From: Hyphomicrobiales bacterium | Lineage (GTDB): Bacteria > Pseudomonadota > Alphaproteobacteria > Rhizobiales > Xanthobacteraceae | Direction of reading: 5' to 3' | NCBI GenBank assembly: GCA_013911975.1 | Contig: JACESF010000018.1 | Location: 453-64,452, forward strand | DNA length: 64,000 nt | Shown here: positions 20,841-48,094 of the stretch, in pieces | Numbering within the stretch: position 1 is the stretch's first letter | How the letters are laid out: the number at the start of each line of letters is the position of its first letter | The notes under the pieces: generated by a model | What the model was told of the DNA's origin: nothing | What the model saw: only the letters and a program-made list of their open reading frames with translations | The model's database searches: none | Translations under genes and position numbers: made by a program

Positions 20841-20844
20841 TTTT

Positions 20845-20873: not shown

Positions 20874-20909
20874 GAGTCCGTAAGGTCGCAGGCGACGAAG
20901 GAGGCACCC

Positions 20910-21767: not shown

Positions 21768-21884
21768 GCCGCCGGACGCGGCCTCGCGCCCGTCCCGCCC
21801 CGTCCCGTTCGCGGGCCGGGGAACACCCAAAACGCATCACAACAAGAAGCCGCGCAACGACGGCCGCAAAATGTGAGGAACGCC

Positions 21885-27691: not shown

Positions 27692-27828
27692 CCGGGCTCC
27701 CACGCGCAAGGCGCCGCTGCATCCGGCGGCGCGTATAGAAGCGCCGGAGGGCGGGAGAAGTTCCCCGGAAATGTCTGTAGCTGGGCCGGGCCAGCGGCGG
27801 CGCTGCGCGGTTTCAGGGCCTTGCGGCC

Positions 27829-31130: not shown

Positions 31131-31268
31131 GGTTCGCTCGCTCCTCGCGGGCGGTTCGAGGCGGCGCACGCCGGGTGGCGCGGGCGCGGGGACTGTCGCT
31201 GCGGGGGAGGGGCGCCCGGCGCGCGTCCGCGATGGTTGCGGGACGGCGCCGGTGCGCGGGCGCTAGTG

Positions 31269-32414: not shown

Positions 32415-32498
32415 CCTGTGTCCTCCCTGGCTTTGCGGTGCGCCTCCGGTTCCGTCGGGCCGCGCGGGATGGGGGTGCACGGTCGGCGGTGGGGTGCC

Positions 32499-32534
32499 CG
32501 TTCGATCTTTTATCGATAGATCGTTCGATCTTTT
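32499..32534. promoter_or_regulatory. Tandem candidate TetR operators upstream of the second liv-type operon
   Basis: CGTTCGATCTTTT occurs twice, 23 bp apart (32499-32511 and 32522-32534). The second copy is part of the palindrome AGATCGttCGATCT (32518-31). Confidence 0.5.
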
Positions 32535-32695
32535 TAATGCAGGTCTAATTCCATTTCCAGCGGAATCTGTGGCGCCCTGCCGCTGCGGGATCGGCGCTGA
32601 TATCCGTGGCAATTCAGGGATTTATCTCTTCAATTGCGGATATTTGCGGAGGGTGCCGTCGTCAAAAATCCGCGAGATGACAGCGGTGACGACCC

Positions 32696-32741
32696 TTGAC
32701 ACGTTCCAGGGAGGCAGGAATATTTAGATCGAGCGTTCGAT
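32696..32741 (+). promoter_or_regulatory. Sigma70-like promoter with overlapping operator upstream of the Rieske dioxygenase operon
   Basis: TTGACA (32696-32701), 17-nt spacer, AATATT (32719-32724). It is immediately followed by AGATCGAGCGTTCGAT (32726-32741), which shares the core CGTTCGAT / ATCGAACG. ATG at 32775. Confidence 0.55.
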
Positions 32742-32774
32742 GAATTTCTAACAATCCAAGAGGGGTGGATCGCC

Positions 32775-34052
32775 ATGCCGCATGCCGCCATGACCGAAGC
32801 CGCAGGCACACGGGACTACAGCGCGCTGATCGAGCCCGCGCGCGTCAACAGCCGTCTCTATTACGATCCGGCGATCTTCCAGGAGGAGTTGGAGAAGATC
32901 TGGTACCGCACCTGGGTCTATGTGGGGCACACCAGCGAGATTCCGAACAAGAACGACTACGTCACCAAGTCCATCGGACCCATGCCGGTGCTGATGGTGC
33001 GCGACAAGGAAGGCGAGGTCCGCCTCCTGCTCAACAAGTGCCCCCATCGCGGCAACCAGCTCTGCGCCTACCAGAAGGGCAACCGCACGAGCTTCACCTG
33101 CCCCTACCATTCATGGACCTTCTCCAATACCGGCGACCTCATGGGCTATGCCCTGCCGGACGGCTATGAGGGCCAGAGCAAGGCCGGGCTCAATCTCGGC
33201 AAGGTGCCGCGCATCGCCATCTATCGCGGCTTCGTCTTCGGCTCCATGGCGGCGGACGGCCCGTCCCTGGAGGAGCATCTCGGCGGCGCCAAGGGGGCGC
33301 TCGACCAGCTCCTCGACAACTCGCCCACCGGCGAACTGGATCTGAGCGCCGGCTTCCTCCAGCACCGCACCAAGGCGAACTGGAAGTTCATGCTCGAGAA
33401 CGAGACCGACGGATACCATCCCGGCTTCGTCCACGGCTCGGTCTTCCAGGTGACCAGTTCGGGCATCGGCAATCTCTACGGCTCCGACTCCACCGCGCTC
33501 ACCCGCGACTATGGCAACGGCCACACCGAGTTCGACCTGCGCCCGGAATGGCGCAAGAACGACAAGCCGCTGCAATGGTTCGGCACCACGCCCGAGCGCC
33601 TGCCGGACTATGTGAAGGCCATGAACGCGGCCTATGGCGAGGAGAAGGCCCGCCGGATCATGATCGACGGCTCGCCGCACGTGATGATCTTCCCGAACCT
33701 GTTCATCGCCGAGATTCAGATCTTCGTGCTCCAGCCCATGGCGGTGGACGAGACCATCCAGCACGTCACCGCCGTCCAGTTCAAGGGCGCGCCGGACATC
33801 AACCGGCGCCTGCGTCAGCAGACCATGGGCTCGGTGGGCCCGGCGGGCCTGCTGCTCGCGGACGACACGGAGATGTACGAGCGCAACCATCGCGGCTCGC
33901 AGATCCGCGATCCCGAATGGCTGGTGCTGAGCCGCGGCCTCCATCGCGAGCGGCTGGACGAGGACGGCTTCCGCATCGCTCATTCCACCGACGAGACGCC
34001 GCAGCGCGGCATCTGGCGCCACTATCTCAACCTCATGACCGAGGCCCGCTGA
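32775..34052 (+). CDS. Rieske non-haem iron aromatic ring-hydroxylating dioxygenase, alpha subunit
   Basis: Rieske motif CPHRGNQLC...CPYHSW. Mononuclear Fe ligands in ENETDGYHPGFVHG. 425 aa. AGAGGGG RBS. Confidence 0.92.
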   Translation: MPHAAMTEAAGTRDYSALIEPARVNSRLYYDPAIFQEELEKIWYRTWVYVGHTSEIPNKNDYVTKSIGPMPVLMVRDKEGEVRLLLNKCPHRGNQLCAYQKGNRTSFTCPYHSWTFSNTGDLMGYALPDGYEGQSKAGLNLGKVPRIAIYRGFVFGSMAADGPSLEEHLGGAKGALDQLLDNSPTGELDLSAGFLQHRTKANWKFMLENETDGYHPGFVHGSVFQVTSSGIGNLYGSDSTALTRDYGNGHTEFDLRPEWRKNDKPLQWFGTTPERLPDYVKAMNAAYGEEKARRIMIDGSPHVMIFPNLFIAEIQIFVLQPMAVDETIQHVTAVQFKGAPDINRRLRQQTMGSVGPAGLLLADDTEMYERNHRGSQIRDPEWLVLSRGLHRERLDEDGFRIAHSTDETPQRGIWRHYLNLMTEAR

Positions 34053-34621
34053 TGACCGCCCTCGCCCCCTCCGGCGCGCCGGGCCGCGCCGCCGCCCCGA
34101 GCCCTACCGCCCCGAGCCTCGCCGGGCAGGACCTCGCCGCCATGGACGCGGTCGCCCTGCACCATCAGGTGGCCCAGTTCCTCTATCTGGAGGCCCGCCT
34201 CGCCGACACCCACGACTATGACGGCTGGGAGAGCCTCTGGACCGAGGACGCCATCTACTGGGTTCCCGCCAATGGCGAGGACACCGATCCCGAGAAGGAG
34301 ATGTCGGTCCTCTACGACAACCGCTCGCGCATCGGCGTGCGCATCCGCCAGCTCAAGACCGGGCGCCGCCACACTCAGACGCCCCGCTCCGAACTTGCCC
34401 GCGTCGTCTCCAACATCGAGGTGGCGGCGATCGAGGGGAGCGAGGTGGAGGTGCGCGCCAACGTCCTGATCTACGAGGACAATCTGCGGGGCGATACGCT
34501 CTGGGCGGCGCGCAACACCTATCGCCTGCGCAGCACCGAGAGCGGCTTCCGCCTCGTGCGCAAGAAGATCGCGCTGGTGAACAACCACAAGCCCATCTTC
34601 ACCCTGTCCTTCCTGGTCTGA
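34052..34621 (+). CDS. Ring-hydroxylating dioxygenase beta (small) subunit
   Basis: ATG overlaps the alpha-subunit stop (TGATG). FLYLEARLADTHDYDGWESLWTEDAIYWVP...YDNRSRIGVRIRQLKTG is the typical NTF2-like beta subunit pattern. Confidence 0.88.
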   Translation: MTALAPSGAPGRAAAPSPTAPSLAGQDLAAMDAVALHHQVAQFLYLEARLADTHDYDGWESLWTEDAIYWVPANGEDTDPEKEMSVLYDNRSRIGVRIRQLKTGRRHTQTPRSELARVVSNIEVAAIEGSEVEVRANVLIYEDNLRGDTLWAARNTYRLRSTESGFRLVRKKIALVNNHKPIFTLSFLV

Positions 34622-34629
34622 GGCCCGCC

Positions 34630-35454
34630 ATGTCTGAACTTCCTGAAGCGGCCGCGGCCGAGAGCTGGATCGGCGAGGGGCCGGTCCTGCTGGACTATGC
34701 CGACGGCGTCGCCACCCTCACGCTCAACCGGCCCGACGCCGCCAACGGCATGAATATCGAGCTCATGCAGGCGCTCTACCGGGCCATCATGGTGGTGCAC
34801 CGCTCGCCCCAGGTGCGGGTGCTGCACCTGCGGGGCGCGGGCGCCAATTTCTGCGCGGGTGGCGACGTGCGCGAGTTCGCCGCCAAGGGCGAGGCCCTCG
34901 GTGACTTCCTGCGGGAGGTGACCGCCTATCTCCAGGTGGCGGTCGGGGCGCTCATCCGCCTCAACGCGGTCGTGGTCACGGAAGTGCACGGCTATGCGGC
35001 GGGCGGCGGCGGCCTCGGCCTCGTCTGCGCCTCCGACATCGTGATCGCGGGGGAGGGCGCGAAATTCCTCGCCGGGGCGACCCGCGTGGGCATGGCGCCC
35101 GATGGCGGCGCCTCGGTCATCCTGCCCCATCTGGTGGGCTTCCGCCGGGCCGCCGAGATCATGCTGTCCAACCGCATCGTGGATGCCGCCGAGGCCCTGT
35201 CCATCGGCCTCGTCACCCGCACCGCGCCGGACGACGCGCTCCGGGACGAGGCGCGCAAGGCCGCGCGCTTCTATGCCTCCGGCGCGCCCCTGGCGCTGGC
35301 CGCCACCAAGCGGCTCCTGTGGAACGCGCTGGACGTGGAGCGGGCCTTGCCGGAGGAGGCGCGCACCGTCTCCGAACTGTCCTTCACCGCCGATTCCCGC
35401 GAGGGGCTCGCGGCGGTGATCGGGAAGCGCAAGCCCGTCTTCACCGGCCGATGA
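34630..35454 (+). CDS. Enoyl-CoA hydratase/isomerase (crotonase) family protein
   Basis: LTLNRPDAANGMN, GAGANFCAGGDV, oxyanion-hole region HGYAAGGGGLGLVCASDIVIA and G..PDGGAS. Confidence 0.88.
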   Translation: MSELPEAAAAESWIGEGPVLLDYADGVATLTLNRPDAANGMNIELMQALYRAIMVVHRSPQVRVLHLRGAGANFCAGGDVREFAAKGEALGDFLREVTAYLQVAVGALIRLNAVVVTEVHGYAAGGGGLGLVCASDIVIAGEGAKFLAGATRVGMAPDGGASVILPHLVGFRRAAEIMLSNRIVDAAEALSIGLVTRTAPDDALRDEARKAARFYASGAPLALAATKRLLWNALDVERALPEEARTVSELSFTADSREGLAAVIGKRKPVFTGR

Positions 35455-36191
35455 GCGCGTCCGCCCCCGGCGCGCGCCGCGCGCTCGTCACCGGAGGCGG
35501 CGCCGGCATCGGCGCCGCCATCGTCCGCAGGCTCGGTGCCGACGGCTGCGCCGTGGTGTTCTGCGATCGCGACGCCCCGGCGGGGACCGAGCTCGCGGTG
35601 GAGACCGGCGCGACTTTCGTGCACATGGACGGCACCGACGCAGAAGCGGCGGGCGCCCTGTTCCGCGCCCATGGGCCGTTCGACGTGCTGGTGAACAATA
35701 TCGGCGCCGACCAGCACGCCTTCTTCACCCAGACCAATGCCGAGGACTGGCGCTTCCTGCTGTCGGTCAATCTGGAGACGGCCTTCCTCTTCACCCGCCT
35801 CGCCTTGCCCGCCATGCAGGGGGCGGGCTGGGGGCGGCTGGTGAACGTCGCCTCGGAGGCCGGGCGGCTCGGGTCCAAGGGCGGGTCGGTCTATGCGGCG
35901 GCGAAAGCGGGGCTGATCGGCTTCACCCGCTCCATCGCGCGTGAGAACGCCCGCTACGGCATCACCGCAAATGCGGTGGCTCCGGGACCCATCCATACCC
36001 CCATGGTGGAGCGGGCGGTGGCCGAGGTGGGCGAGAAGATCCTCGCCGACATGGCCGCCCTCACGCTGCTGCGCCGCCTGGGCGAGCCGCGCGAGGTGGC
36101 GGCGGCGGTGGCCTTCCTCGCCTCGCAGGACGCCGCCTTCATCACCGGCGAGGTGCTGGGCGTCTCCGGCGGCATGGGCTGCGGGGCCTGA
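35451..36191 (+). CDS. SDR-family oxidoreductase (3-hydroxyacyl-CoA or dihydrodiol dehydrogenase candidate)
   Basis: ATGA overlap with the crotonase stop. TGGGAGIGAA, NNIG, catalytic S...YAAAK and a PGPI motif. Confidence 0.88.
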   Translation: MSASAPGARRALVTGGGAGIGAAIVRRLGADGCAVVFCDRDAPAGTELAVETGATFVHMDGTDAEAAGALFRAHGPFDVLVNNIGADQHAFFTQTNAEDWRFLLSVNLETAFLFTRLALPAMQGAGWGRLVNVASEAGRLGSKGGSVYAAAKAGLIGFTRSIARENARYGITANAVAPGPIHTPMVERAVAEVGEKILADMAALTLLRRLGEPREVAAAVAFLASQDAAFITGEVLGVSGGMGCGA

Positions 36192-36238
36192 CGGGTGACG
36201 CAGCCTTCCATCCCGAACCCAAATTCGAGGGAAATCCG

Positions 36239-36553
36239 ATGACCCGGATCGTCTTCGTCACGCCCGACAGCCGCCGCATCGAGATTGATGCGCAGGACGG
36301 GCTCAGCGTCATGGAATGCGCCCGCCGCGCCAATGTGCCGGGCATCGTGGCCGAATGCGGCGGTGCCTGCTCGTGCGCCACCTGCCACGTGCATGTGGAC
36401 CCCATTTGGCGCGAAGCCGTGGGAGAGGCGGCCGGCATGGAGCGCGACATGCTGGAATTCGCCGACGACGTGCGCGACTGCTCCCGCCTGTCCTGCCAGG
36501 TGAAGGTGGCGCCGAGCCTGGACGGCCTTACGGTTCACCTGCCGTCGGTTTAA
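36239..36553 (+). CDS. [2Fe-2S] ferredoxin, putidaredoxin/adrenodoxin type
   Basis: 104 aa. Cys ligand pattern ECGGACSCATCHV ... SRLSCQV. Confidence 0.9.
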   Translation: MTRIVFVTPDSRRIEIDAQDGLSVMECARRANVPGIVAECGGACSCATCHVHVDPIWREAVGEAAGMERDMLEFADDVRDCSRLSCQVKVAPSLDGLTVHLPSV

Positions 36554-36558
36554 AACTT

Positions 36559-36591
36559 GATCGGTCGATTCACTTTGGAATCGGCGCCGAT
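36559..36591. promoter_or_regulatory. Weaker operator-like palindromes upstream of the CoA-transferase gene
   Basis: GATCGgtCGATt (36559-36570) and ATCGGcgCCGAT (36580-36591). They share the ATCG-N2-CGAT architecture of the other sites but not the full core. Confidence 0.25.
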
Positions 36592-36638
36592 CCCTTGACC
36601 CGCGCCCCGACCCCGGACGCGCGCAGCCGGAGAGCCAC

Positions 36639-37760
36639 ATGCCGGGCCCCCTTGCGGGACTTCGTATCATCGAGATCGTCGGCCTCGGGCCGGGCCCCTT
36701 CGCCGCCATGATGCTGGCGGATGCGGGGGCCGAGGTGATCCGCGTCCACCAGAAGGGACAGCGTCCCGACCTCCCGATCCTGAACACCCGCTTCGACGTG
36801 CTGGCGCGCGGGCGCAGGTCTATCGCCCTCGACCTGAAGGCCGCGTCCGATCTCGCCGTGATGCGTGACCTCGTCGCTCGCGCGGACGGGCTGATGGAGG
36901 GGTTCCGCCCCGGCGTGATGGAGCGCCTGGGGCTGGGGCCGGAGGTTTGCCTCGCCCTCAACCCCCGCCTCGTCTATGGCCGCATGACCGGCTGGGGCCA
37001 GGAGGGGCCGCTGCGGGACGTGGCGGGGCACGATCTCAACTATCTCGGCATGACGGGCGCCCTCGCGGCCATGGGGCCGGCGGACCGGCCCCCGCCCGTG
37101 CCGCTGAACCTCGTGGCCGATTTCGGCGGCGGCGGCATGCTCATGGCCTTCGGCATGGTGGCGGCGCTGCTGGCGGCGCGCGGCTCGGGCACCGGCCAGG
37201 TGGTGGACGCCGCCATGACGGACGGCGCCTCGCTGCTCGCCGCCATGTTCTGGGGCTTCCGCGCGGGCGGCCTGTGGAGCCCCGAGCGGCATGCGAACCT
37301 GATCGACGGCGGCGCCTATTTCTACGGCACCTATACGTGCGCCGATGGGAAGTTCCTCGCGGTGGCGCCCATGGAGGGCAAGTTCCACCGCATCTTCATC
37401 GAGCGGCTGGGCCTGGATGCGGCCGAGTTCACCCATGGGGCCGATCCCGCCGCTTGGGGGCGGCTGCGCGCACGCCTCGCGGCCCTCTTCCTGACCGAGC
37501 CGCGGGACCATTGGACCGCCCTGTTTGCGGGCACGGATGCCTGCGTGTCTCCGATCCTGGACTGGGACGAGGCGGCCGCCGATCCGCATGCGGTGGTCCG
37601 GGACGCTTTCGTCAGCGTGGACGGCGTGGTGCAGCCCGCGCCCGCGCCGCGCTTTTCCGCCACCCCGTCCACCATCGCCCACGGCCCGGCGGCGCCGGGC
37701 GCGCATGGGCGGGAGATCCTCGTGGACTGGGGCCTCGATCCCGCGCGGCTCGACGCCTGA
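36639..37760 (+). CDS. Family III CoA-transferase fold protein (CaiB/BaiF), alpha-methylacyl-CoA racemase-like
   Basis: GLRIIEIVGLGPGPFAAMMLADAGAEVIRV, GFRPGVMERLGLGPE, LVYGRMTGWGQEGP and AGHDLNY are motifs I associate with the MCR/AMACR branch. GGAGAG RBS. Confidence 0.8.
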   Translation: MPGPLAGLRIIEIVGLGPGPFAAMMLADAGAEVIRVHQKGQRPDLPILNTRFDVLARGRRSIALDLKAASDLAVMRDLVARADGLMEGFRPGVMERLGLGPEVCLALNPRLVYGRMTGWGQEGPLRDVAGHDLNYLGMTGALAAMGPADRPPPVPLNLVADFGGGGMLMAFGMVAALLAARGSGTGQVVDAAMTDGASLLAAMFWGFRAGGLWSPERHANLIDGGAYFYGTYTCADGKFLAVAPMEGKFHRIFIERLGLDAAEFTHGADPAAWGRLRARLAALFLTEPRDHWTALFAGTDACVSPILDWDEAAADPHAVVRDAFVSVDGVVQPAPAPRFSATPSTIAHGPAAPGAHGREILVDWGLDPARLDA

Positions 37761-37856
37761 CGCAAAGAGGCCGGCCCCCGGCGAAGCGGGAGGCCGGCCA
37801 GTGGCCCCGGGGCCGCGACGCCGAAGGGGGCCGGACGTCGGGGCACGCGCGGGGTG

Positions 37857-38768
37857 TCAGAGGGCGCGCAGGAAGGCGCCGATGCGCGCGAGGGAGAGGG
37901 CGGTCTCGGGCAAGTCCTCGAACACCTGGAAGTGGTGGCACATGCCCGCGAACACCTCGACCTCGACGCGGGTGCCCTGTGCGGACGCGTTGCGGGCCAG
38001 GAGGTGGCTGTCGTCCAGCGTGATGTCGTGGCCGCCCGCATGGACGAGAATGGGCGGCAGGCCGGACAGATCCCCCAGGACCGGCGAGGCGGCCGGGTCA
38101 GAGGGCGATCGCTCGCGCCCCAGATAGGTGCGCGCCATGGCCTTGAGCTGTTCCGGGCGGGAGAAGATGTCCTGTGTGGCCAAGGCGGTGTAGCTCTCGC
38201 CGCCCATGGTCAGGTCGAGCCAGGGCGAGAGCAGGACCAGCGCCTTCGGCAGCGCGAGGCCCGCATCGCGCGCCCGCATGGCGGTGCCGAGCGCGAGCGC
38301 CCCGCCGGCGGAATCCCCCGCGAGGGCGAGCGGTACGTGCCCAGCCTCCACCAGCGCCCGGTAGGCGGTGAAGGCATCGTCGGGCGCCGCCGGAAAGCGG
38401 TGCTCGGGCGCGAGACGGTAGTCGAACCCGATGACCCGCGTGCCGCTGGCCGCCGCAAGGCGCGCCATGAGCCCGGCATGGGACCGCACCGAGCCGATCT
38501 GGAAGCCGCCGCCATGGCAATAGAGCACGGTGCGCCCTGGCGTTTCGGTCGCGTCCGCACCCTCGAAGGCGCAAGCGGGCAGGCCCGCCAAGGTGAGGGG
38601 TGTCGAGCGGGTCCCGGGCGGTGCGTCGTCCAGGAAGGTCTCGAAGCTGGCGCGGATCTCGGCGAGCGTCATGCCCGCCGCCCAGGCGGAAGTGGCGGCC
38701 GCGATGCGGGCGCGCACCCGCGCGAAGGGGGTGTCGTCCTCGGCCAAGTGGGGCGGGGGCCGGGTCAT
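37857..38768 (-). CDS. Alpha/beta-hydrolase, hormone-sensitive-lipase-type esterase
   Basis: Oxyanion HGGGF and nucleophile elbow GDSAGG. Lies downstream of, and co-oriented with, the CoA ligase gene. Confidence 0.85.
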   Translation of the reverse strand: MTRPPPHLAEDDTPFARVRARIAAATSAWAAGMTLAEIRASFETFLDDAPPGTRSTPLTLAGLPACAFEGADATETPGRTVLYCHGGGFQIGSVRSHAGLMARLAAASGTRVIGFDYRLAPEHRFPAAPDDAFTAYRALVEAGHVPLALAGDSAGGALALGTAMRARDAGLALPKALVLLSPWLDLTMGGESYTALATQDIFSRPEQLKAMARTYLGRERSPSDPAASPVLGDLSGLPPILVHAGGHDITLDDSHLLARNASAQGTRVEVEVFAGMCHHFQVFEDLPETALSLARIGAFLRAL

Positions 38769-38809
38769 CGCCGGCCGCCGCCCGTCGTCGGAAGGAAGAA
38801 GGGCATGCC

Positions 38810-40135
38810 TCAGTGCGCCGCTTCAGGCCGATGCAGCACGCGCGTCGCCTTGGCCTCGTAGCGCGGCAGCGCGCCTTCCGTGTGGCATTCCACGTTCACG
38901 TTGATGCCGAGGCGCGCCTTGATCTCGCGGCGCACGTCGGCTGCCGCGTCGGCGCCGGGGCGCTGCGTGCTGCCGACGGATTCCACCGCCACCGTCATCT
39001 TGCCGATGGTGGTGGCCTCCTTGTCCACATAGATCTGCCACGCCTCCTTCGCGAGGCCGGGAATGCCGGCGATCACGTCCTCGATCTGCGAGGGGAAGAC
39101 GATCACGCCCTTGAACTTAATCATGTCGTCGGTGCGGCCGATGATCCGGCCGATCTTGCGCATGCCACGACGGCCGGACGGGCAGTCATAGGGGCGTGGG
39201 GACAGGCGCACGAGGTCTCGGGTGCGCCAGCGCACCACGGGCGAGGCTTCCTTGCGCAAGGTGGTGATGACGATCTCGCCCACCTCGCCCTCCGAGACCG
39301 GCTTCATGGTCTTGGGGTCCAGGATTTCGACGATGATGCTGTCCTCATTGAGGAGCTGCAGCTCGTCGTCCGCATGGGTGAAGGGCGTCGAAATGGCGAG
39401 GACGGGGCCGCCCGCCTCGGTGGTGCCGTAGATGTTCTGGCTCATGAAGCCGGCCGGCATCTCCGCTTCGAGCTGGGCGCGGAATTCCGCCGAGACCGAC
39501 TGGCCGCCGAGAATGGCCACCTTGAGCGTCCATTCGGTGCGCGGGTCGATGCCCTGGTTCTTGGCGGCCTGCACCAGCGTCATCAGCCACAGAGGCGACA
39601 TGGAGGCGACGTCATAGGCGTGGTCGCGCAGCCAGCGGGCGGCCAGCTCGCCGCGCCCGGGGCCGATGGGGAAGTTGGTGCAGCCCACGGCCGAGAAGCC
39701 GGCATCCAGCGCAGGGCCGCCGATCCACAGGCCGTAGCCGTAGCCCTGATAGGCGCGGTAGCCGGGCTGCACGCCGGCGGCGGTGAGCAGGCGGCCCATC
39801 TGGTAGGGCAGCAGGTCGTAATAGTCGCTCTTCGTCATGCCGAAGGTGACCGGCAGGCCGGTGGTGCCGGACGTGGCGACGAAGCGCTCCACCTTCTCCA
39901 TGGGCACGGTGAGGAAGGGGAAGGGATAGCGGTCGCGCAGCAGCGACTTGTCCATGAGGGGCGCGTTGGCGAGGCCGTCCTCGGCGGCGAGGTCCTCCGG
40001 CTTCATGCCGGCCTGCGCGAAATGATCCTTCCAGGCGTCGCACTGCGCCAGGCGGGCGCCGAGGCCCGCGAGGCCCTCGCGCTGGATCTTCAGAATTGCG
40101 TCGCGGTCGAGCGACTCCACCTCAGGATGCTGCAT
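38810..40135 (-). CDS. Aryl-acid CoA ligase, phenylacetate-CoA ligase (PaaK) family
   Basis: ATG at 40135 after GGGAGGGAGG. ~441 aa. ATSGTTGLP P-loop, YGTTE, ..RWRTRD and GRTDDMIKFKGV, with a short N-terminal domain typical of the PaaK-like subfamily. Confidence 0.85.
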   Translation of the reverse strand: MQHPEVESLDRDAILKIQREGLAGLGARLAQCDAWKDHFAQAGMKPEDLAAEDGLANAPLMDKSLLRDRYPFPFLTVPMEKVERFVATSGTTGLPVTFGMTKSDYYDLLPYQMGRLLTAAGVQPGYRAYQGYGYGLWIGGPALDAGFSAVGCTNFPIGPGRGELAARWLRDHAYDVASMSPLWLMTLVQAAKNQGIDPRTEWTLKVAILGGQSVSAEFRAQLEAEMPAGFMSQNIYGTTEAGGPVLAISTPFTHADDELQLLNEDSIIVEILDPKTMKPVSEGEVGEIVITTLRKEASPVVRWRTRDLVRLSPRPYDCPSGRRGMRKIGRIIGRTDDMIKFKGVIVFPSQIEDVIAGIPGLAKEAWQIYVDKEATTIGKMTVAVESVGSTQRPGADAAADVRREIKARLGINVNVECHTEGALPRYEAKATRVLHRPEAAH

Positions 40136-40199
40136 CTGCCTCCCTCCCCATCCGACCGTTGGACCCGGCGGCTCTTTTGGCCGCTCGTCTATGGGCGAA

Positions 40200-40229
40200 T
40201 TAATAGACCGAACGGATGGTCTATGTAAA
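40200..40229 (-). promoter_or_regulatory. Sigma70-like promoter of the ligase-esterase operon with operator in the spacer
   Basis: On the minus strand: TTTACA, then an 18-nt spacer containing the palindrome ATAGACCatccgttcGGTCTAT (plus-strand 40203-40224, core AGACCGAACG), then TATTAA. Confidence 0.55.
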
Positions 40230-40323
40230 CGCCGATTTTGATCTGCATCAATTCCAGGGCGTGCCGGGTGCCGTGCACCGTCCGAAAAATCGGTGGGGAC
40301 GCGCATGCGGAATGTCCCTGGGC

Positions 40324-40364
40324 TTGGCACCGGAGGGCTTCGCGACTATAGACCGAATGATCGG
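40324..40364 (+). promoter_or_regulatory. Sigma70-like promoter of the TetR gene with overlapping operator
   Basis: TTGGCA (40324-29), 17-nt spacer, TATAGA (40347-52). AGACCGAATGATCGG (40350-64) overlaps the -10. Confidence 0.55.
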
Positions 40365-40387
40365 AAAATTTTTGCAGGTATGACGCC

Positions 40388-41071
40388 GTGGCGAGAACGC
40401 GCTCAGCCGAATACGACAATATTCACGATACCATACTTGAGCGGGCCGCGTCGGTATTCGCGCGGCGTGGCTATGCCGCCACTTCCATCGGCGACATCGC
40501 GGAAGCGTGCGAATGCTCCAAGTCGCGCCTGTATCATTATTTCACCTCCAAGGAGGCGATCCTATCCGACATGCTGACGTCGCATGTGGAGAATCTCCTC
40601 ATGAAGTGCCGGCACACCCTCTATGGCTACCAGGACCCGGAGGAGCGCTTCCGCCAGCTCACCCGCCTGTTCCTGGAAGTCTATTCGGTCTCCCGTGACC
40701 AGCATGTGGCCCTGCTCACCTGCGCGGAATTCCTCGCCCCCGAAACCCGCAAGGTGCTGGTGGCCAAGCAGCGGGAGCTGATCGCCTATGTGCGCGACAT
40801 CCTGCTCCAGCTCCGCCCCGACCTCGCCAGGGATTCCACCATGGCCCATGTGGACACCATGCTGTTCTTCGGCATGATCAACTGGACCTACACTTGGTAC
40901 CACGCGGACGGCGCGGTGACGCCGGGCGAGGTGGCCGACCGCACCGTGGACCTGTTCGTGAACGGCTACGCCCATGTGGCCGGCGCAAAGCCCGCCGACG
41001 CCAATGGCGGCGAGGCTCGCCCGGCGGGCCGTCCGGCCGCCCGGCCCGAAGGCCGCGCCGCCAAGGAGTGA
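40388..41071 (+). CDS. TetR-family transcriptional repressor
   Basis: GTG start. HTH ILERAASVFARRGYAATSIGDIAEACECSKSRLYHYFTSKEAIL. Low-complexity Ala/Arg/Pro tail. Confidence 0.88.
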   Translation: MARTRSAEYDNIHDTILERAASVFARRGYAATSIGDIAEACECSKSRLYHYFTSKEAILSDMLTSHVENLLMKCRHTLYGYQDPEERFRQLTRLFLEVYSVSRDQHVALLTCAEFLAPETRKVLVAKQRELIAYVRDILLQLRPDLARDSTMAHVDTMLFFGMINWTYTWYHADGAVTPGEVADRTVDLFVNGYAHVAGAKPADANGGEARPAGRPAARPEGRAAKE

Positions 41072-41077
41072 GGGGCC

Positions 41078-42298
41078 TCAGGCCGCCGGGCGCCGCATGC
41101 GCGCCACGGGGTCGAAGCCCTCTCGCGACGCCTCGTCGAGGGAAACGGCGATGCCGCCCTCCAGCATCTTCTTCGCCGCCATGTAGGTCCGGGCGTCGTT
41201 GATGGCGTCCACGGCGATCATCCGCCCGTCTCGGAAATACCAGAAGGATTGGCCCCGCTCCGAGGGGCGGCGGAGCACCGCGTCATAGCCCCGGTTGAGG
41301 CCGACGATCTGGAGCTTGGCATCATACTGGTCGGACCAGAACCACGGCACCGGCGCATAGGCGCGGGGCCGGCCCAGCATGTCGTCAGCGGCGCATTCCG
41401 CCTGGTCCACCGCATTCTGCACGCTCTCCAGCCGCGTGGGGAGGCCGTCCAGCGGGAAGGCCGCGCAATCGCCTGCCGCCCAGATGCCCGCCGCCGAGGT
41501 GCGGCCGTGCCGATCCACGAGGATGCCGTTGTCGCAGGCGATCCCGGCGGCGCGGGCGAGTTCGTCGCGCGGCAGCACGCCGATGCCCACGAGCACAGCG
41601 TCCACCTCGATGCGCGTGCCGTCGTCCAGCCGCACGGCCGCCACGGCGCCGTCGCGTGCCTCCACCTCGGCGACGCCGCGCCCCTCCAGGATGCGCACCC
41701 CGTGCCCGGCATGCAGCGCGCGGATGGCGTCCGAAGTCTGCGCGCAGGCCACGCGCTCCAGGATGCGGGGGCCCCGCTCCACCACCGTGACGGTAAGGCT
41801 CGCCCTGGCCGCCACCGCCGCCGTCTCCAGGCCCACATAGCCGCCGCCCAGCACCAGGAGGCGCCGGCCGGGGCGGATCTCGCCTGCCAGCCGGTCCACG
41901 TCCGCGAGGCTGCGCAGTTCGAATACGCCCCGCAGCCCGGTGAATACAGGCGGCAGCGGACGCGGTCGCGTGCCGGTGGCGAGCGCCAGCTTGGTCCAGC
42001 CCACCGTGCACCCGTCCACCTGGAGCGTGCGGGCGTCGGGGTCGATGGAGGTGACCGCCGTCCCCGTTACCAGTTCCACGCCCAGGTCGGCCCAGAATTC
42101 CCGCGGCCGGAGATAAAGCCGATCAACCGTCCATTCCCCTTTTAGGTAGGCCTTGGAGAGGGGCGGGCGCTGGTAGGGCGGGTGCGGCTCGTCGCCATAA
42201 AGCGTCAGCACGCCGGAATAACCGCCATCGCGCAAGTGTATGGCGAGGGAGGCGGCGGCCTGTCCGGCGCCGACGATGACGATGTGCTCCTGGCTCAT
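41078..42298 (-). CDS. FAD/NAD(P)H ferredoxin reductase (putidaredoxin-reductase type)
   Basis: VIVGAGQAA, YQRPPLSKAYL, second dinucleotide fold LLVLGGGYVGLETA, and AAGDCA. Confidence 0.9.
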   Translation of the reverse strand: MSQEHIVIVGAGQAAASLAIHLRDGGYSGVLTLYGDEPHPPYQRPPLSKAYLKGEWTVDRLYLRPREFWADLGVELVTGTAVTSIDPDARTLQVDGCTVGWTKLALATGTRPRPLPPVFTGLRGVFELRSLADVDRLAGEIRPGRRLLVLGGGYVGLETAAVAARASLTVTVVERGPRILERVACAQTSDAIRALHAGHGVRILEGRGVAEVEARDGAVAAVRLDDGTRIEVDAVLVGIGVLPRDELARAAGIACDNGILVDRHGRTSAAGIWAAGDCAAFPLDGLPTRLESVQNAVDQAECAADDMLGRPRAYAPVPWFWSDQYDAKLQIVGLNRGYDAVLRRPSERGQSFWYFRDGRMIAVDAINDARTYMAAKKMLEGGIAVSLDEASREGFDPVARMRRPAA

Positions 42299-42316
42299 GC
42301 CGCCTCTCTCCCGTTA

Positions 42317-42344
42317 TTTACAGATCGAACGTTCTGGTTATTAT
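42317..42344 (+). promoter_or_regulatory. Sigma70-like promoter of the HMGCS-DUF35/thiolase operon with operator in the spacer
   Basis: TTTACA (42317-22), 16-nt spacer, TATTAT (42339-44). AGATCGAACGTTCT (42322-35) fills the spacer. Same layout as the ligase promoter. Confidence 0.6.
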
Positions 42345-42415
42345 AGCGCACAAATGGCGCTGGCAATCGGCTTTTCCGCCGACCCGCCGCACGCAGAACA
42401 AGGCGAGGAAACAGG

Positions 42416-43861
42416 GTGACGGGCATCACAGCGATCGCAATCCACCTGCCGCGCCTGCGCCTTCAGCGCGCCAGCATGGCCGCCGCCATGGACTGGCTGA
42501 CGCCCCGGTCCGAGGCGCGCGGCGCGCGCAGCCTCGCCTTCTGGGACGAGGACCCCGTGACCATGGGGGTGGCCGCCGCCCGGGACTGCCTCGCGCAGGT
42601 GCCGGACGCCCGCGCCGCCGTGCGCCGCCTCGCCTTTGCCACCACAACCCCGGTCTTCGCCGAGCCGCAGCAGGCGAGCCTCCTCCATGCCGCGCTGCGC
42701 CTGCCCGAGCGGACGCTGGCGCAGGACACGGCCGGCACGCCGCGCTGCGGGCTTCTCGCCGTGCAGGCGGCCCTGGAAGGGGCGGGCCCGGCCCTGGTGG
42801 TTGCCGCCGACATGCCGGTGAGCACGCCGGGCTCGCTGGCGGAATCCCGCCACGGCGACGGCGCGGCCGCCCTTCTGGTGGGTGGCGGACCGGCGCGTCT
42901 GGCCTATCGCGGCGGCGCCAGCCTCTCCGCCCCCTTCATCGAGCGCTACCGCGCCGCCGACCGCCCCCTCGCCACCGATTGGGAGGAGCGCTGGGTGCGG
43001 GAGGAAGGGGTTCTCGACTTCGTGCCCCGCGCCATCGCCGAAGCCCTTGCCACGGCGGGCCTCGGGCCGGGCGAGGTGCAGCATCTGGTCCTGCCCTGCG
43101 TCATTCCCGGCGCGGCCAAGGCCGTGGCGCAGGCGTTGGGCCTCGCGCACGTCCGCCTCGCGTCGGGCCTCGAAGCCGAATGCGGCGATACCGGTGCCGC
43201 CCATGCCCTGGTGATGCTGGCCCGGACCATGGAGGCCATGCGGCCTGGGGAGCGCGTCGTGGTGGCGCAGTTCGGCCAGGGCGCGACCGCCCTGGTCCTG
43301 GAGGCGACCGCCGCCATTTCCGCGCATCCCCCCGGCGCTTCTGCGGCGCTCGCGGCGGGCATTCCGGAGACCAATTATTTGAAGCTCCCCGTCTTCCGGG
43401 GTCTGCTGCCCTGGGAGCGCGGCCTGCGCGGCCGCCTGCCGGTGAACGAGGCGCTGACCACGGCCTACCGCAATTCCGAGGCGCTGCTGGGCTTCGTGGG
43501 CGGGCGGAGCCCGCAGACCGGGCAGGTGCAGTTCCCGCCCTCCCGCCTCGCCGTGGCCGAAGCGGGGCATTTCGATGCGCCCCAGGAGCCCTGGCCCCTG
43601 GCGGACCTCGGCGGCACGGTGGCCACCGCCACCGCCGACCGGCTCGCCTTCTCGCGCAGCCCGCCCAATTGCTACGGCCTCGTGGACATTCCCGGCGGCG
43701 CGCGCCTGATGATGGACTTCACGGACCCCGACGCGGTGCGCCTCGCGCCCGGCGATGCGGTGCGCTTCGTCTTCCGCATCAAGGACATGGACGAGCGCAC
43801 CGGTTACCGGCGCTATTTCTGGAAGGCAGTCGCGGCATCCGCGCTGCCGGCCGCGGCTTGA
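42416..43861 (+). CDS. Fusion protein: HMG-CoA-synthase/KAS-III-like thiolase-fold domain + C-terminal DUF35 OB-fold domain
   Basis: GTG start. The N-terminal ~330 aa has an HMGCS-like layout (FATTTPVFAEPQQAS, GTPRCGLLAVQAAL, QHLVLPCV, GDTGAA). The C-terminal ~130 aa (GGRSPQTGQVQFPPSRL...GTVATAT...GLVDIPGGARLMMDFTD...GDAVRFVFR) matches DUF35, but all four zinc-ribbon Cys positions are replaced. Confidence 0.7.
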   Translation: MTGITAIAIHLPRLRLQRASMAAAMDWLTPRSEARGARSLAFWDEDPVTMGVAAARDCLAQVPDARAAVRRLAFATTTPVFAEPQQASLLHAALRLPERTLAQDTAGTPRCGLLAVQAALEGAGPALVVAADMPVSTPGSLAESRHGDGAAALLVGGGPARLAYRGGASLSAPFIERYRAADRPLATDWEERWVREEGVLDFVPRAIAEALATAGLGPGEVQHLVLPCVIPGAAKAVAQALGLAHVRLASGLEAECGDTGAAHALVMLARTMEAMRPGERVVVAQFGQGATALVLEATAAISAHPPGASAALAAGIPETNYLKLPVFRGLLPWERGLRGRLPVNEALTTAYRNSEALLGFVGGRSPQTGQVQFPPSRLAVAEAGHFDAPQEPWPLADLGGTVATATADRLAFSRSPPNCYGLVDIPGGARLMMDFTDPDAVRLAPGDAVRFVFRIKDMDERTGYRRYFWKAVAASALPAAA

Positions 43862-43878
43862 ACGAAAGGCGACGCGCG

Positions 43879-45072
43879 ATGGCCAGGGGAATCAAGGACA
43901 GGGTCGCCATTCTCGCCATGGGCTGCTCGCGTTTCGGCGAGCGGTGGGACGTGGGCCAGGAAGAGCTGATGGCCGAGGCCTATCTGGAGGCCCTGCGCCA
44001 TGCGGGCATCGCCCCGGCCCAGATCGAGGCCGCGTGGTACTCGTCCCATTACGACGATATCGGCGCGGGCAAGGCGGGCACGCCCATGGCCCAGGCGTTG
44101 CGCCTGCCCGCCATCGGCGTCACCCGGGTGGAGAATTTCTGCGCGGGCGGCACCGAGGCGTTCCGGGGTGCGGTCTATGCGGTGGCCTCGGGCGCGGTGG
44201 ACATCGCGCTCGCCATGGGGGTGGAGAAGCTCAAGGACACGGGGTTCGCGGGCCTTCCGCCCGCCTCGCGCGGCACGCTGGCGCCCATGTACCTGCCCAC
44301 CCACACCAATCCGGGCAATTTCGCCCAACTCGCCCGCGCCTACGGCGCGCGGCACAACATCTCCTACGACGACCTGAAGCGGGCCATGGGGCACACCTCC
44401 ATGAAGAGCCACGCCAATGCGCTGAACAACCCCAATGCCCATCTGCGCAAGGCCATCACCGTGGAGCAGGCGGTCAACGCGCCCATGGTGGCCGACCCGC
44501 TCGGCCTGTTCGACTGCTGCCCGGTCTCGGACGGCGCCGCCTGCGCCATCGTCACCACGCCGGAGATCGCCCGCAGCCTCGGCAAGGCGCCGGTGCTGGT
44601 GAAGGCGATCCAGCTCGTGGCGTCCAACGGCTGGGAGGTGCAGCAGAGCGGCTGGAACGGCGCCTATGTCCACACCGCCCGCATCGCCGCGCGCCGCGCC
44701 TACCAGGAGGCGGGGATTGCGGATCCGCGCGCCCAGGTGAGCTTCGCCGAGCTGCACGACTGCTTCTCCATCACCGAATTGGTGACGCTGGAGGATCTCG
44801 GCCTCGCCGACGAGGGCACCGCCTGGAAGCGCATGCTGGACGGAGCCTTCGATGCGGACGGCGCGCTGCCCTGCCAGGTGGATGGCGGGCTGAAATGCTT
44901 CGGCCATCCGGTCGGCGCCTCGGGCCTGCGCATGCTCTACGAATGCTGGCTGCAGCTTACCGGGCAGGCGGGCGCGCGCCAGCTCGCGAACCCCAGCCTC
45001 GCCCTCACCCACAATCTGGGCGGCGCGCCGGCCCAGAACGTGTGCTCCATCACCCTTGTCGGTGCCGCCTGA
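43879..45072 (+). CDS. SCP-x/nonspecific lipid-transfer-type thiolase
   Basis: VENFCAGGTEAF (nucleophile Cys), CCPVSDGAA, GHPVGASGLRM and NLGG. 397 aa. Confidence 0.88.
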   Translation: MARGIKDRVAILAMGCSRFGERWDVGQEELMAEAYLEALRHAGIAPAQIEAAWYSSHYDDIGAGKAGTPMAQALRLPAIGVTRVENFCAGGTEAFRGAVYAVASGAVDIALAMGVEKLKDTGFAGLPPASRGTLAPMYLPTHTNPGNFAQLARAYGARHNISYDDLKRAMGHTSMKSHANALNNPNAHLRKAITVEQAVNAPMVADPLGLFDCCPVSDGAACAIVTTPEIARSLGKAPVLVKAIQLVASNGWEVQQSGWNGAYVHTARIAARRAYQEAGIADPRAQVSFAELHDCFSITELVTLEDLGLADEGTAWKRMLDGAFDADGALPCQVDGGLKCFGHPVGASGLRMLYECWLQLTGQAGARQLANPSLALTHNLGGAPAQNVCSITLVGAA

Positions 45073-45098
45073 CCCGACCGTGGCGGCCCGCAGACTGG

Positions 45099-45137
45099 CC
45101 CCGCCGCCCGGCCCGTGCCGGCGGCGGGGCTTTTTTC
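45099..45137 (+). terminator. Rho-independent terminator
   Basis: ccccgccgcc(c)gg / ccggcggcgggg GC stem, followed by cTTTTTTc, 27 nt after the thiolase stop. Confidence 0.7.
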
Positions 45138-46108: not shown

Positions 46109-46123
46109 CGGCCGGAGTTTCCC

Positions 46124-47080: not shown

Positions 47081-47108
47081 ATTCTCCCCTGTTCGAGGAA
47101 CGATCCCC

Positions 47109-48065: not shown

Positions 48066-48094
48066 GCCCGCCCCCCTTTCCAAGGCACGTTTCC

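Follow-up and report, generated by a model that had tools for sequence, protein, structure and literature searches.

The stretch of DNA considered here, the window, comprises 64,000 nucleotides of a Hyphomicrobiales bacterium (assembly GCA_013911975.1, contig JACESF010000018.1, positions 453 to 64,452). Its central part encodes a two-subunit Rieske oxygenase with a ferredoxin and a reductase, a coenzyme A (CoA) ligase of the PaaK family, a crotonase, a short-chain dehydrogenase/reductase (SDR), a racemase homologue, an esterase, a thiolase, a protein in which an HMG-CoA synthase (HMGCS)-like domain is fused to DUF35, a TetR-family regulator and a Liv-type ATP-binding cassette (ABC) importer (Table 1). 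These genes very probably form a single co-regulated unit for the CoA-dependent catabolism of an aromatic acid. A TetR-linked catabolic unit for a CoA-activated aromatic acid had been proposed in a first-pass annotation of the sequence, and the protein families, the operator motif and the recurring neighbourhood described below bear this out.

The window has a G+C content of approximately 70%, at which plain ORF lists abound in shadow frames. Reading frames were chosen by third-position GC and the translations were then checked against Pfam and NCBIfam. Every gene listed in the first-pass annotation was recovered at the same coordinates or a few bases off, and Pfam agrees on each family. The divergent promoter region previously placed at 32.4-32.8 kb contains a −35/−10-like pair, and the terminator placed at 45.1 kb corresponds to a terminator-like hairpin with a T-run. 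Reading of the junctions indicates that the alpha, beta, crotonase and SDR genes are translationally coupled: the alpha stop codon overlaps the beta ATG in the sequence TGATG, and the end of the crotonase gene and the beginning of the SDR gene share the sequence ATGA. The esterase gene lies 3′ of the ligase gene on the same strand, following a gap of 41 bp.

Table 1. Genes and predicted regulatory features of the cluster, in window coordinates
Feature	Position	Strand	Basis
Two Liv-type ABC ATPase genes	27829-28530 and 28517-29302	-	High-GC3 open reading frames (ORFs)
Two Liv-type permease genes	29299-30261 and 30258-31169	-	ORFs and translations
Periplasmic solute-binding protein gene	31269-32414	-	Pfam PF13458 (Peripla_BP_6), E = 6.5e-56
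Two operator-like sites, binding-protein/alpha region	32499-32508 and 32522-32531	.	Exact AGAYCGAAYG
Promoter-like pair upstream of alpha	32696-32724	+	TTGACA, 17 nt, AATATT
One-mismatch operator-like site AGATCGAGCG upstream of alpha, after the -35/-10 pair	32726-32735	+	
Rieske alpha subunit gene	32775-34052	+	Pfam Rieske and Ring_hydroxyl_A
Rieske beta subunit gene	34052-34621	+	Pfam Ring_hydroxyl_B, E = 2.4e-27
PaaG-type crotonase gene	34630-35454	+	Pfam ECH
FabG/PhaB-like SDR gene	35451-36191	+	Pfam adh_short
[2Fe-2S] ferredoxin gene, putidaredoxin/adrenodoxin type	36239-36553	+	Pfam Fer2; CGGACSCATC motif in translation
Alpha-methylacyl-CoA racemase homologue gene	36639-37760	+	Pfam CoA_transf_3; MCR 1x74
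HSL-family esterase gene	37857-38768	-	Pfam Abhydrolase_3, E = 3e-56
PaaK-family aryl-acid CoA ligase gene	38810-40135	-	TIGR02155, PaaK structures
Two operator-like sites, ligase/TetR region	40205-40214 and 40350-40359	.	Exact AGAYCGAAYG
TetR-family regulator gene	40388-41071	+	Pfam TetR_N and TetR_C_24
FAD-dependent ferredoxin-NAD(+) reductase gene	41078-42298	-	Pfam Pyr_redox_2 and Reductase_C
Promoter-like -35/-10 pair upstream of fusion-gene/thiolase operon	42317-42344	+	
Operator-like site between these -35 and -10 hexamers	42322-42331	+	Exact AGAYCGAAYG
HMGCS-like::DUF35 fusion gene	42416-43861	+	Pfam ACP_syn_III_C and OB_ChsH2_C
SCP2-type thiolase gene	43879-45072	+	NCBIfam PRK06157
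Terminator-like hairpin and T-run after thiolase operon	45112-45137 (hairpin/T-run 45112-45128)	+	CCCGTGCCGGCGGCGGG then GCTTTTTTCA

The 10-mer AGAYCGAAYG occurs in five exact copies in the window, every one of which lies in the cluster's three divergent promoter regions (binding protein/alpha, ligase/TetR and reductase/fusion gene). The expected number of copies in the window is 0.36, and none of 100 shuffles reached five. The second site of the binding-protein/alpha region lies within a perfect 14-nt palindrome, AGATCGTTCGATCT (32518-32531), and the 40205-40214 site lies within the inverted repeat ATAGACC-N8-GGTCTAT. Both ligase/TetR sites are kept in place in 11 Xanthobacter and Azorhizobium loci, and the binding-protein/alpha intergenic region also has a site in loci of these two genera. 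Across a wider range, the motif was found in the corresponding intergenic regions of Xanthobacter, Azorhizobium, Bradyrhizobium, Roseibium and Microbaculum. As the five copies are confined to the three divergent promoter regions of the cluster, they support a single TetR regulon with predicted operators to which the regulator would bind. The TetR control put forward in the first-pass annotation thus agrees with both the regulator's domains and the predicted palindromic operator shared by three promoters.

The importer genes were missing from that annotation. They belong to the cluster, because they are syntenic with it in the closest loci and are served by the same promoter region and the same operator motif as the oxygenase operon. 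In those loci the ATPase genes have 77-95% identity to those of the window, and permease genes adjoin the binding-protein gene in 27-34 related loci. The closest solved structure to the binding protein is 7ylt (9e-43), presumably the binding protein of the auxin (iad) locus. It is followed by 3sg0, 4dqd, 3uk0 and 3tx6/4fb4, aromatic-acid binders of the Rhodopseudomonas palustris type. By these matches, the protein falls in the aromatic-acid-binding branch of Peripla_BP_6.

The survey of gene neighbourhoods suggested in the first-pass annotation was carried out on 80 related loci from other genomes, by tblastn with the window proteins over 10-kb flanks. The tblastn search was used since ORF picking by third-position GC took shadow ORFs for the beta, SDR and thiolase genes in some loci. 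The beta gene was found in 78 loci, the crotonase gene in 68 (directly 3′ of beta in 67 of these), the SDR gene in 60, the esterase gene in 52 and the TetR gene in 50. Lower counts were obtained for the ferredoxin (38), reductase (36), fusion (33), PaaK-type ligase (30) and racemase (24) genes. The thiolase gene was counted in 20, an underestimate, as the 10-kb flanks leave it out in the closest loci. The grouping of the cluster genes is not due to chance. Its core, alpha-beta-crotonase-SDR, recurs in approximately 68 of the 80 loci, across Alpha- and Betaproteobacteria, and an extradiol dioxygenase gene lies within 10 kb in only four.

The closest relatives are those of Xanthobacter and Azorhizobium, with alpha subunits 94-96% identical to that of the window, and Rhizobiales metagenome bins contain identical proteins. 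Among marine Roseobacters the cluster is widespread, and there are plasmid relatives in Actinomycetota; plasmids of Pseudonocardia and Sulfitobacter bear further variants. Loci lacking the PaaK-type ligase often bear class-I ligases. In the Burkholderiales relatives, the esterase gene is found after that of the SDR and not after a ligase gene. The cluster of Variovorax SRS16 continues with genes for a PaaF-like hydratase (255 bits), a 506-aa dehydrogenase of PaaH architecture, an acyl-CoA dehydrogenase and a mesaconyl-CoA-isomerase-like protein. The 506-aa dehydrogenase scores 637 bits with PRK08268 (cut-off 508) and 395 bits with the PaaH model. In Rhodococcus opacus PD630, genes for the ligase, both oxygenase subunits, the fusion protein and the thiolase are accompanied by those for extra crotonases and an acyl-CoA dehydrogenase and by a CaiB-family gene.

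The translated alpha sequence shows the Rieske motif CPH...CPYH and the iron-site motif ENETDGYHPGFVH. The placing of this subunit rests on bit-score comparisons with NCBIfam models, solved structures and IpfA, the alpha subunit of the ibuprofen (ipf) system on plasmid pIBU218. BLASTP aligned it with IpfA over its full length (42% identity over 421 residues, 346 bits), and the beta subunit is 40% identical to IpfB. Among solved structures, the closest to alpha is IadD (9O71, 7YLS) at 193 bits, for which only alpha residues 16-222, the Rieske domain, align; HcaE scores 157 bits. Alpha scores under the NCBIfam cut-offs for BenA, HcaE and AntA, and IpfA gives a like pattern of sub-threshold matches, equally far under the three cut-offs. 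The comparison recommended in the first-pass annotation therefore has IpfA as the best match. IpfA/IpfB are the nearest of the characterised enzymes to the window alpha/beta, a relationship of homology, not orthology. The reductase reaches 311 bits with the HcaD model (cut-off 450). Genes for the di-iron epoxidase PaaABC(D)E were not found among the cluster genes or the flanking genes scanned. Oxygenation of the CoA ester by the Rieske enzyme is somewhat more likely than not.

The ligase, also singled out for comparison in the first-pass annotation, proved to be of the PaaK family and unrelated to the ibuprofen ligase IpfF at the subfamily level (24% identity in a partial alignment, E = 0.012). 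It matches the Burkholderia cenocepacia PaaK structures 2y4o (E = 3e-63) and 2y27 (E = 2e-60). Its score with the PaaK equivalog TIGR02155 is 268 bits, with a cut-off of 646, and by this measure the protein is a PaaK-family paralogue and not a PaaK equivalog.

The family-III protein had been left as a CoA-transferase or racemase, of which the second stands. It aligns over its full length with the alpha-methylacyl-CoA racemase (MCR) of Mycobacterium tuberculosis, 1x74 (E = 3e-111, 50% identity), and conserves the catalytic His126 (AGHDLNY) and Asp156 (VADFGGG), the numbering of which was checked on the alignment. No true CoA-transferase structure matched better than 1e-33 (best 6e-33), and assignment as a CoA-transferase was rejected on the MCR match and the His126/Asp156 pair. 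By sequence, the protein is a homologue of alpha-methylacyl-CoA racemase (2-arylpropionyl-CoA epimerase). The MCR/AMACR family is known for epimerising 2-arylpropionyl-CoAs such as ibuprofenoyl-CoA. Together with the SCP2-type thiolase, the racemase suggests a substrate with an alpha-methyl branch, a 2-arylpropionyl-CoA from which propionyl-CoA would be released. An arylacetic or 2-arylpropionic acid is the most likely substrate, with the CoA thioester as the form that is degraded.

A non-aromatic substrate, for example a methyl-branched alicyclic or terpenoid acid whose CoA ester is hydroxylated or desaturated by the Rieske enzyme, is quite improbable. Such a substrate would suit the marine Roseobacters, for which 2-arylpropionates are no obvious nutrients, and the many genes for beta-oxidation, racemase-like proteins and flavin adenine dinucleotide (FAD) oxidoreductases in the related clusters. 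However, alpha and beta belong to the ring-hydroxylating BenA/HcaE/IpfA-like group, the binding protein is nearest to binders of aromatic acids and the ligase is nearest to phenylacetate-CoA ligases.

A phytoene-desaturase-like FAD oxidoreductase of approximately 435-460 aa is absent from the window cluster. It was seen in 20 related loci, including L043, L052, L054, L056, L057, L060, L065, L070, L075, L082, L083, L002 and L084, and had no NCBIfam match at E <= 1e-20.

The term crotonase in the first-pass annotation was correct as to family and can now be sharpened to PaaG-like. The closest structures include Thermus thermophilus PaaG (6sl9/3hrx; E = 4e-40, 41% identity) and Escherichia coli PaaG (4fzw_C). 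The roles of the catalytic Asp and the lid Tyr of PaaG have been described (PMC7497051). Asp158, which corresponds to PaaG Asp136, is invariant in 67 homologues, and Tyr100, the counterpart of the lid Tyr80, is kept in 48 of them. No Glu occurs at either of the hydratase catalytic positions in the family-wide alignment of these 67. With the PaaG model TIGR02280 the score is 153 bits (cut-off 345), close to the 137 bits obtained with the model of the alternative oxepin-CoA hydrolase. This crotonase-type hydrolase likewise lacks the canonical residues (PMC9007349). The window enzyme may thus be an isomerase or a ring hydrolase; a plain hydratase it is not.

The best structural matches of the SDR are 3-oxoacyl-ACP reductases, acetoacetyl-CoA reductases and a (3R)-hydroxyacyl-CoA dehydrogenase, and the enzyme appears to be of the FabG-like, 3-oxoacyl-thioester type. 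A role as cis-dihydrodiol dehydrogenase is unsupported, as none was among the nearest structures. The esterase is of the HSL family, with HGGG and GDSAG motifs, and its closest structures are EstD11, E40 and Est8.

A different order of steps may be modelled on the degradation of indole-3-acetate (iad). It has been reported that the Variovorax oxygenase IadCDE acts on free indole-3-acetate, probably by epoxidation leading to a rearranged lactone, and that the CoA ligase and thiolase steps come later, though their genes directly follow iadDE; the structures 9O71 and 7YLS are those of IadDE (bioRxiv 10.1101/2025.10.25.684584). Applied to the window, the Rieske enzyme would epoxidise the free acid, the product would lactonise and the esterase would open the lactone before the ligase acts, leaving the crotonase, SDR and thiolase to remove the side chain. 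The position of IadD as the closest solved structure to alpha and of 7ylt as that to the binding protein fits this order, as does the esterase gene immediately downstream of the ligase gene. It is nevertheless improbable. The alignment with IadD is limited to the Rieske domain, whereas that with IpfA spans the full length at a higher score. The window has a separate ferredoxin and FAD reductase where the iad system has the single reductase IadC, and a TetR regulator, not MarR. The esterase gene does not keep its place after the ligase gene in the Burkholderiales relatives, and a PaaG-type enzyme needs a dearomatised CoA ester.

The thiolase passes the NCBIfam model PRK06157 (660 bits, cut-off 403), while models of the PcaF/PaaJ type score no better than 30 bits. 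Its closest structures are 7yvy, the archaeal complex thiolase 6esq and BbsB 7pxp. In an alignment of 23 sequences, the window thiolase and 22 relatives, Cys88, H293-D-C295-F, G-H343-P and NLGG are invariant. IpfD, the thiolase-fold protein of the ipf system, has Ala in place of the thiolase Cys and YDAF for HDCF, falls in the Ltp-type families PRK06158 and PRK07855, and is 29% identical to the window thiolase in the C-terminal part only. IpfD looks aldolase-like, which fits the retro-aldol step proposed for ipf. Since the window thiolase family keeps the Cys, HDCF and GHP elements while IpfD has lost them, the cleavage of the C-C bond is predicted to be thiolysis of a 3-oxoacyl-CoA and not a retro-aldol release of a catechol.

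The gene adjoining that of the thiolase encodes the HMGCS-like::DUF35 protein, and the two are adjacent in all 20 loci having both. The presence of the fusion, as given in the first-pass annotation, is upheld; the architecture is not new, as an example from Pseudomonas fluorescens is already published (PMC12960953). The closest sequence is PhlA (5m3k, 1e-15). The AlphaFold model (predicted local distance difference test score 88.7, predicted template-modelling score 0.91) is closest in fold to PhlA, to the HMGCS subunit of the archaeal thiolase/HMGCS/DUF35 complex and to MucA (template-modelling score about 0.80-0.85). The catalytic residues of HMGCS are substituted: the Cys position is Pro109 (Thr108 in the FabH alignment) and the Glu of the 'TES' motif is Thr77/78. 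The motif aligned as 'ACYSG' in the HMGCS-like 8s81 is 'AGKSG' in PhlA and 'TPRCG' in the window fusion. Across 33 homologues the Glu and Cys positions are unconserved; the His and Asn positions were mapped indirectly, through PhlA. An active retro-aldolase of the HMG-CoA-synthase type was considered and rejected on account of the substituted Cys and Glu, the nearby Cys111 being present in only 10 of the 33. Sequence and model thus point to a catalytically degenerate HMGCS-like scaffold joined to DUF35, in the manner of PhlA::PhlB. PhlA is also devoid of the Cys and Glu, with PhlC as the sole catalytic subunit (PMC6392133). The fused HMGS-DUF35 of P. fluorescens, together with its thiolase, was reported in 2026 to carry out thiolytic cleavage of acetoacetyl-CoA in vitro, with no condensation (PMC12960953). 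The authors saw no pathway context for the complex, and 1,001 of 1,030 HMGS/ACAT/DUF35 loci were without adjacent secondary-metabolism machinery (PMC12960953).

At 43470-43560 (GGRSPQTG...PPSRLAV), the window protein has none of the four cysteines that make up the Zn ribbon of DUF35. They are intact in the fusion homologue of R. opacus (CATCG...CKRCG; locus L084, 16076-17458). The Zn ribbon seems to be dispensable in the proteobacterial fusions.

The first-pass annotation had likened the cluster to ipf, a likeness that holds for the oxygenase and fails for the ligase, the thiolase and the DUF35 part; the last has no significant similarity to IpfE (BLASTP, E = 2.1). Under the ipf scheme, the route of which is on record (PMC9195938, PMC10004696), the aryl-acyl-CoA would be converted to a 1,2-cis-dihydrodiol, the thiolase and DUF35 would remove the side chain to give a catechol, and ring cleavage would be encoded elsewhere. 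The closest characterised relatives of both oxygenase subunits come from this system, and a racemase suits 2-arylpropionates such as ibuprofen. In addition, the window has HpaD/catechol-2,3-dioxygenase-like and FAA-hydrolase-family genes at 20.9-22.8 kb. This scheme is unlikely to apply. The thiolase has kept the residues lost by IpfD, with which it aligns in part only, and neither IpfE nor IpfF has a same-subfamily counterpart in the window. Under it no role falls to the PaaG-like crotonase, FabG-like SDR or esterase, though these are the most conserved partners of alpha and beta. Ring-cleavage dioxygenases are found near the core in just 4 of the 80 loci, and the upstream dioxygenase of the window lies in a separate GntR-linked unit past mdoGH.

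That upstream unit (20055-22802, plus strand, with 14941-20070 on the minus strand) encodes a GntR(FCD) regulator, an FAA-hydrolase-family protein, an extradiol-dioxygenase-like protein and a second Liv-type importer. The FAA-hydrolase-family protein is HpaG-like (160 bits), and the two-domain extradiol-like protein scores 103 bits with HpaD and 86 bits with catechol 2,3-dioxygenase, both sub-cut-off. The genes at 20055-22802 could be a lower pathway for a catechol-type product, as a unit separated from the cluster by mdoGH. The mdoGH genes are those of osmoregulated periplasmic glucan synthesis (23985-27709, minus strand; an MdoH-like glycosyltransferase of 728 aa and MdoG, PF04349, E = 1e-189), and sit between the two aromatic-looking units of the window.

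A further link to ibuprofen was sought in the ibuprofen degrader Patulibacter medicamentivorans I11, which has an alpha subunit 65% identical to that of the window (L083, contig191, 10001-11263). It speaks for the ipf scheme by its host but has a different gene context, its neighbours being a TetR regulator, an SDR, an acyl-CoA dehydrogenase, a phytoene-desaturase-like FAD oxidoreductase and a long-chain ligase. As the crotonase-SDR-esterase core is absent from this neighbourhood, strain I11 was rejected as a direct link and kept as a lead only. The proteome response of I11 to ibuprofen reportedly includes an acyl-CoA synthetase, an enoyl-CoA hydratase and a Rieske protein, which may or may not be this alpha subunit.

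The same thiolase and racemase may be read in terms of beta-oxidation. A phenylalkanoic or alpha-methyl-branched aryl acid would have its side chain shortened by the crotonase, SDR, thiolase and racemase in a peroxisomal- or Bbs-like manner, with the Rieske enzyme hydroxylating the side chain or attacking the shortened aroyl product. A racemase and an SCP2-type thiolase classically go together in the handling of 2-methyl-branched acyl-CoAs, the closest structures to the thiolase include BbsB, the SDR belongs to the 3-hydroxyacyl-thioester type and acyl-CoA dehydrogenase genes adjoin the core in many related loci. The window cluster, however, has no acyl-CoA dehydrogenase, its crotonase has neither of the hydratase glutamates and resembles an isomerase, and its ligase is of the arylacetate (PaaK) type. 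The tight coupling of alpha, beta, crotonase and SDR also suggests that the crotonase works on the product of the oxygenase. Beta-oxidative shortening is accordingly a poor candidate.

The reading favoured here, held tentatively, is a Rieske-initiated CoA pathway in which the ring is opened in a paa-like manner without a ring-cleaving dioxygenase. The cluster would be a catabolic island repressed by TetR. The Liv-type ABC system would import the aromatic carboxylic acid, which the PaaK-like ligase would convert to the acyl-CoA. An alpha-methyl acyl-CoA, whether the substrate itself or an intermediate formed later, would be converted between its 2R and 2S forms by the MCR homologue. Alpha/beta, the ferredoxin and the reductase, acting as a three-component Rieske oxygenase, would oxygenate and dearomatise the ring of the CoA ester. 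The PaaG-like crotonase, by way of the acidic alpha-proton of the thioester, would then isomerise the oxygenated ring or open it hydrolytically. Conversion to a 3-oxoacyl-CoA would be completed by the FabG-like SDR and the HSL esterase; in a chemically coherent version, a hemiacetal would be converted to a lactone and then to the acid, replacing PaaZ. The SCP2-type thiolase, complexed with its dead HMGCS-like::DUF35 partner, would thiolytically remove propionyl- or acetyl-CoA. The remaining dicarboxylyl-CoA would enter general or paa-type beta-oxidation, the genes for which lie in-cluster in other lineages. Overall, the scheme would follow the hybrid-pathway logic of paa with a Rieske oxygenase replacing PaaABCE, and not the catechol route of ipf. 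This logic is suggested by the combination of a PaaK-type ligase, an IpfAB-related oxygenase, a PaaG-type crotonase, a 3-oxoacyl-type SDR and a true thiolase with a dead scaffold. It is also suggested because relatives hold paa-like lower-pathway genes and ring-cleavage dioxygenases are nearly absent.

Several points weigh against the paa-like pathway. All of its steps, including the substrate and the order of steps, are drawn from sequence, and the roles of the SDR and esterase are chemical guesses. The similarities to PaaK, PaaG and PaaH are under the NCBIfam equivalog cut-offs, which indicates paralogues and not orthologues. Oxygenases of the alpha/beta Rieske type normally yield cis-dihydrodiols. 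From the cis-1,2-diol of an arylacetyl-CoA no route to a 3-oxoacyl-CoA could be written, so that the paa-like model needs epoxidation or another unproven outcome. Gene adjacency is no proof of oxygenation at the CoA level, because IadCDE acts on the free acid despite the CoA-enzyme genes that follow. No gene for a PaaZ-like hydrolase, MaoC or aldehyde dehydrogenase lies within the cluster, and an extradiol-dioxygenase-like gene is present 10.8 kb upstream within the window. With the racemase in 24 and the PaaK-type ligase in 30 of the 80 loci, the 2-arylpropionate reading may be limited to the lineage of the window.

If the paa-like pathway is correct, Rieske oxygenases can supply a paa-like ring opening for which a ring-cleaving dioxygenase is unneeded. 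It would also give a catabolic role to the abundant fused HMGS-DUF35/thiolase complexes, recently termed an evolutionary intermediate without a pathway. In its widest form, the proposal is a third aerobic 'hybrid' aromatic pathway beside paa and box, in which a Rieske-dearomatised arylalkanoyl-CoA is ring-opened and shortened by CoA-ester chemistry alone across hundreds of related clusters; this generalisation is speculative and somewhat doubtful. To our knowledge, ipf is the only genetically defined bacterial route for 2-arylpropionates such as ibuprofen, naproxen and hydratropate. With its related oxygenase, racemase, other downstream chemistry and chromosomal spread, the cluster could be a natural reservoir of 2-arylpropionate-degrading activities. 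It could also account for the degradation of arylalkanoic acids by soil, rhizosphere and marine bacteria. Close copies are available in the culturable hosts Xanthobacter autotrophicus, Azorhizobium doebereinerae, Bordetella bronchiseptica, Variovorax and R. opacus PD630.

Other genes of the window lie further from the cluster. Right after its terminator, at 45548-49246 on the plus strand, are genes for an SsuE-like flavin mononucleotide reductase, two NMT1/sulfonate-type binding proteins, encoded by tandem paralogous genes (46124-47080 and 47109-48065), and a luciferase-like monooxygenase. The set resembles a unit for the utilisation of sulfonates and apparently has no connection with the aromatic-acid cluster. 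At 56566-59432 (plus strand), a further Peripla_BP_6 binding-protein gene (E = 6e-94) is followed by that of an Amidohydro_3 protein; with this one included, the window has three Liv-type binding-protein genes. At 10449-11735 (minus strand), a 428-aa protein with two carboxymuconolactone-decarboxylase-like stretches is encoded, an unusual fusion that in its C-terminal part scores above the cut-off of the NCBIfam model for (R)-mandelonitrile lyase (170 bits, cut-off 140).

All components of the cluster come from known families; it is the conserved combination and the predicted pathway that constitute the undescribed part. A large-database search gave 3,980 homologues of alpha (E <= 1e-30) and 904 of the HMGCS-like::DUF35 protein (E <= 1e-10); all the names among those listed were generic and none was informative. 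Full-text literature searches yielded no published description of this gene set. As far as the searchable literature shows, the cluster is distinct from ipf and uncharacterised, as the first-pass annotation had supposed.

Comparison with the known systems places the cluster among several of them. The ipf system (Sphingomonas Ibu-2; Rhizorhabdus wittichii MPO218, pIBU218) likewise has a two-subunit Rieske oxygenase served by a ferredoxin and an FAD reductase as separate proteins, an acid-CoA ligase encoded in the locus and a thiolase-fold protein alongside a DUF35 domain, and the likely substrates of both are arylacetic or 2-arylpropionic acids. The ligases differ in kind, IpfF being a class-I AMP-binding enzyme of about 527 aa and that of the window a PaaK-type enzyme of 441 aa. 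IpfE is a stand-alone DUF35 protein, whereas the window DUF35 is the C-terminal part of the fusion with the dead HMGCS-like domain. The PaaG-like crotonase, FabG-like SDR, racemase, esterase, TetR regulation and ABC importer are additions of the window over ipf. On pIBU218, bphC adjoins ipfA, whereas the window cluster has no adjacent meta-cleavage genes. The ipf genes are plasmid-borne and flanked by insertion sequences in sphingomonads; the window cluster is not so flanked and is chromosomal in many genera. On pIBU218 (L003, 22636-25245), approximately 9-11 kb downstream of ipfA and past an IS6100 copy, lie alpha/beta hydrolase and CaiB/BaiF-family genes, the product of the latter sharing 32% identity with the window racemase. 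Functions of the hydrolase and racemase type may therefore not be wholly missing from the ipf region.

With the iad system, the cluster shares Rieske alpha/beta genes followed by CoA ligase, thiolase, dehydrogenase and hydrolase genes, and a binding protein of the same family. The iad oxygenase differs in acting on the free acid, with a single reductase and no separate ferredoxin, and is under MarR regulation. The racemase shares with MCR/AMACR its full-length identity and catalytic His/Asp pair; its context is the catabolism of an aromatic acid, in place of the lipid or steroid catabolism of those enzymes.

The thiolase module resembles the PfACAT/HMGS-DUF35 complex of P. fluorescens in architecture and residue pattern, on which the comparison was made, both having a fused HMGS-like-DUF35 protein without the E-C-H-N tetrad. 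As in the wider HMGS/ACAT/DUF35 family (the archaeal complex, PhlACB and MucABC), the partner thiolase carries Cys, HDxF and GHx, and the top structural matches of the window fusion are the HMGS-like subunits of these complexes. The window module differs from that of P. fluorescens in lying within a conserved catabolic cluster and in having lost the Zn-ribbon cysteines of DUF35.

In comparison with the phenylacetate (paa) pathway, the cluster has a Rieske oxygenase instead of the di-iron epoxidase PaaABCDE, replaces PaaJ by an SCP2-type thiolase that has a scaffold partner, lacks PaaZ and has an additional racemase, and its similarities are all under the equivalog cut-offs. The two have in common a ligase of the PaaK family, a PaaG-like crotonase in which the catalytic Asp and the lid Tyr are the same, the logic of CoA thioesters with thiolytic removal of C2 or C3 units and, in the extended clusters of the relatives, PaaF-like and PaaH-like enzymes.

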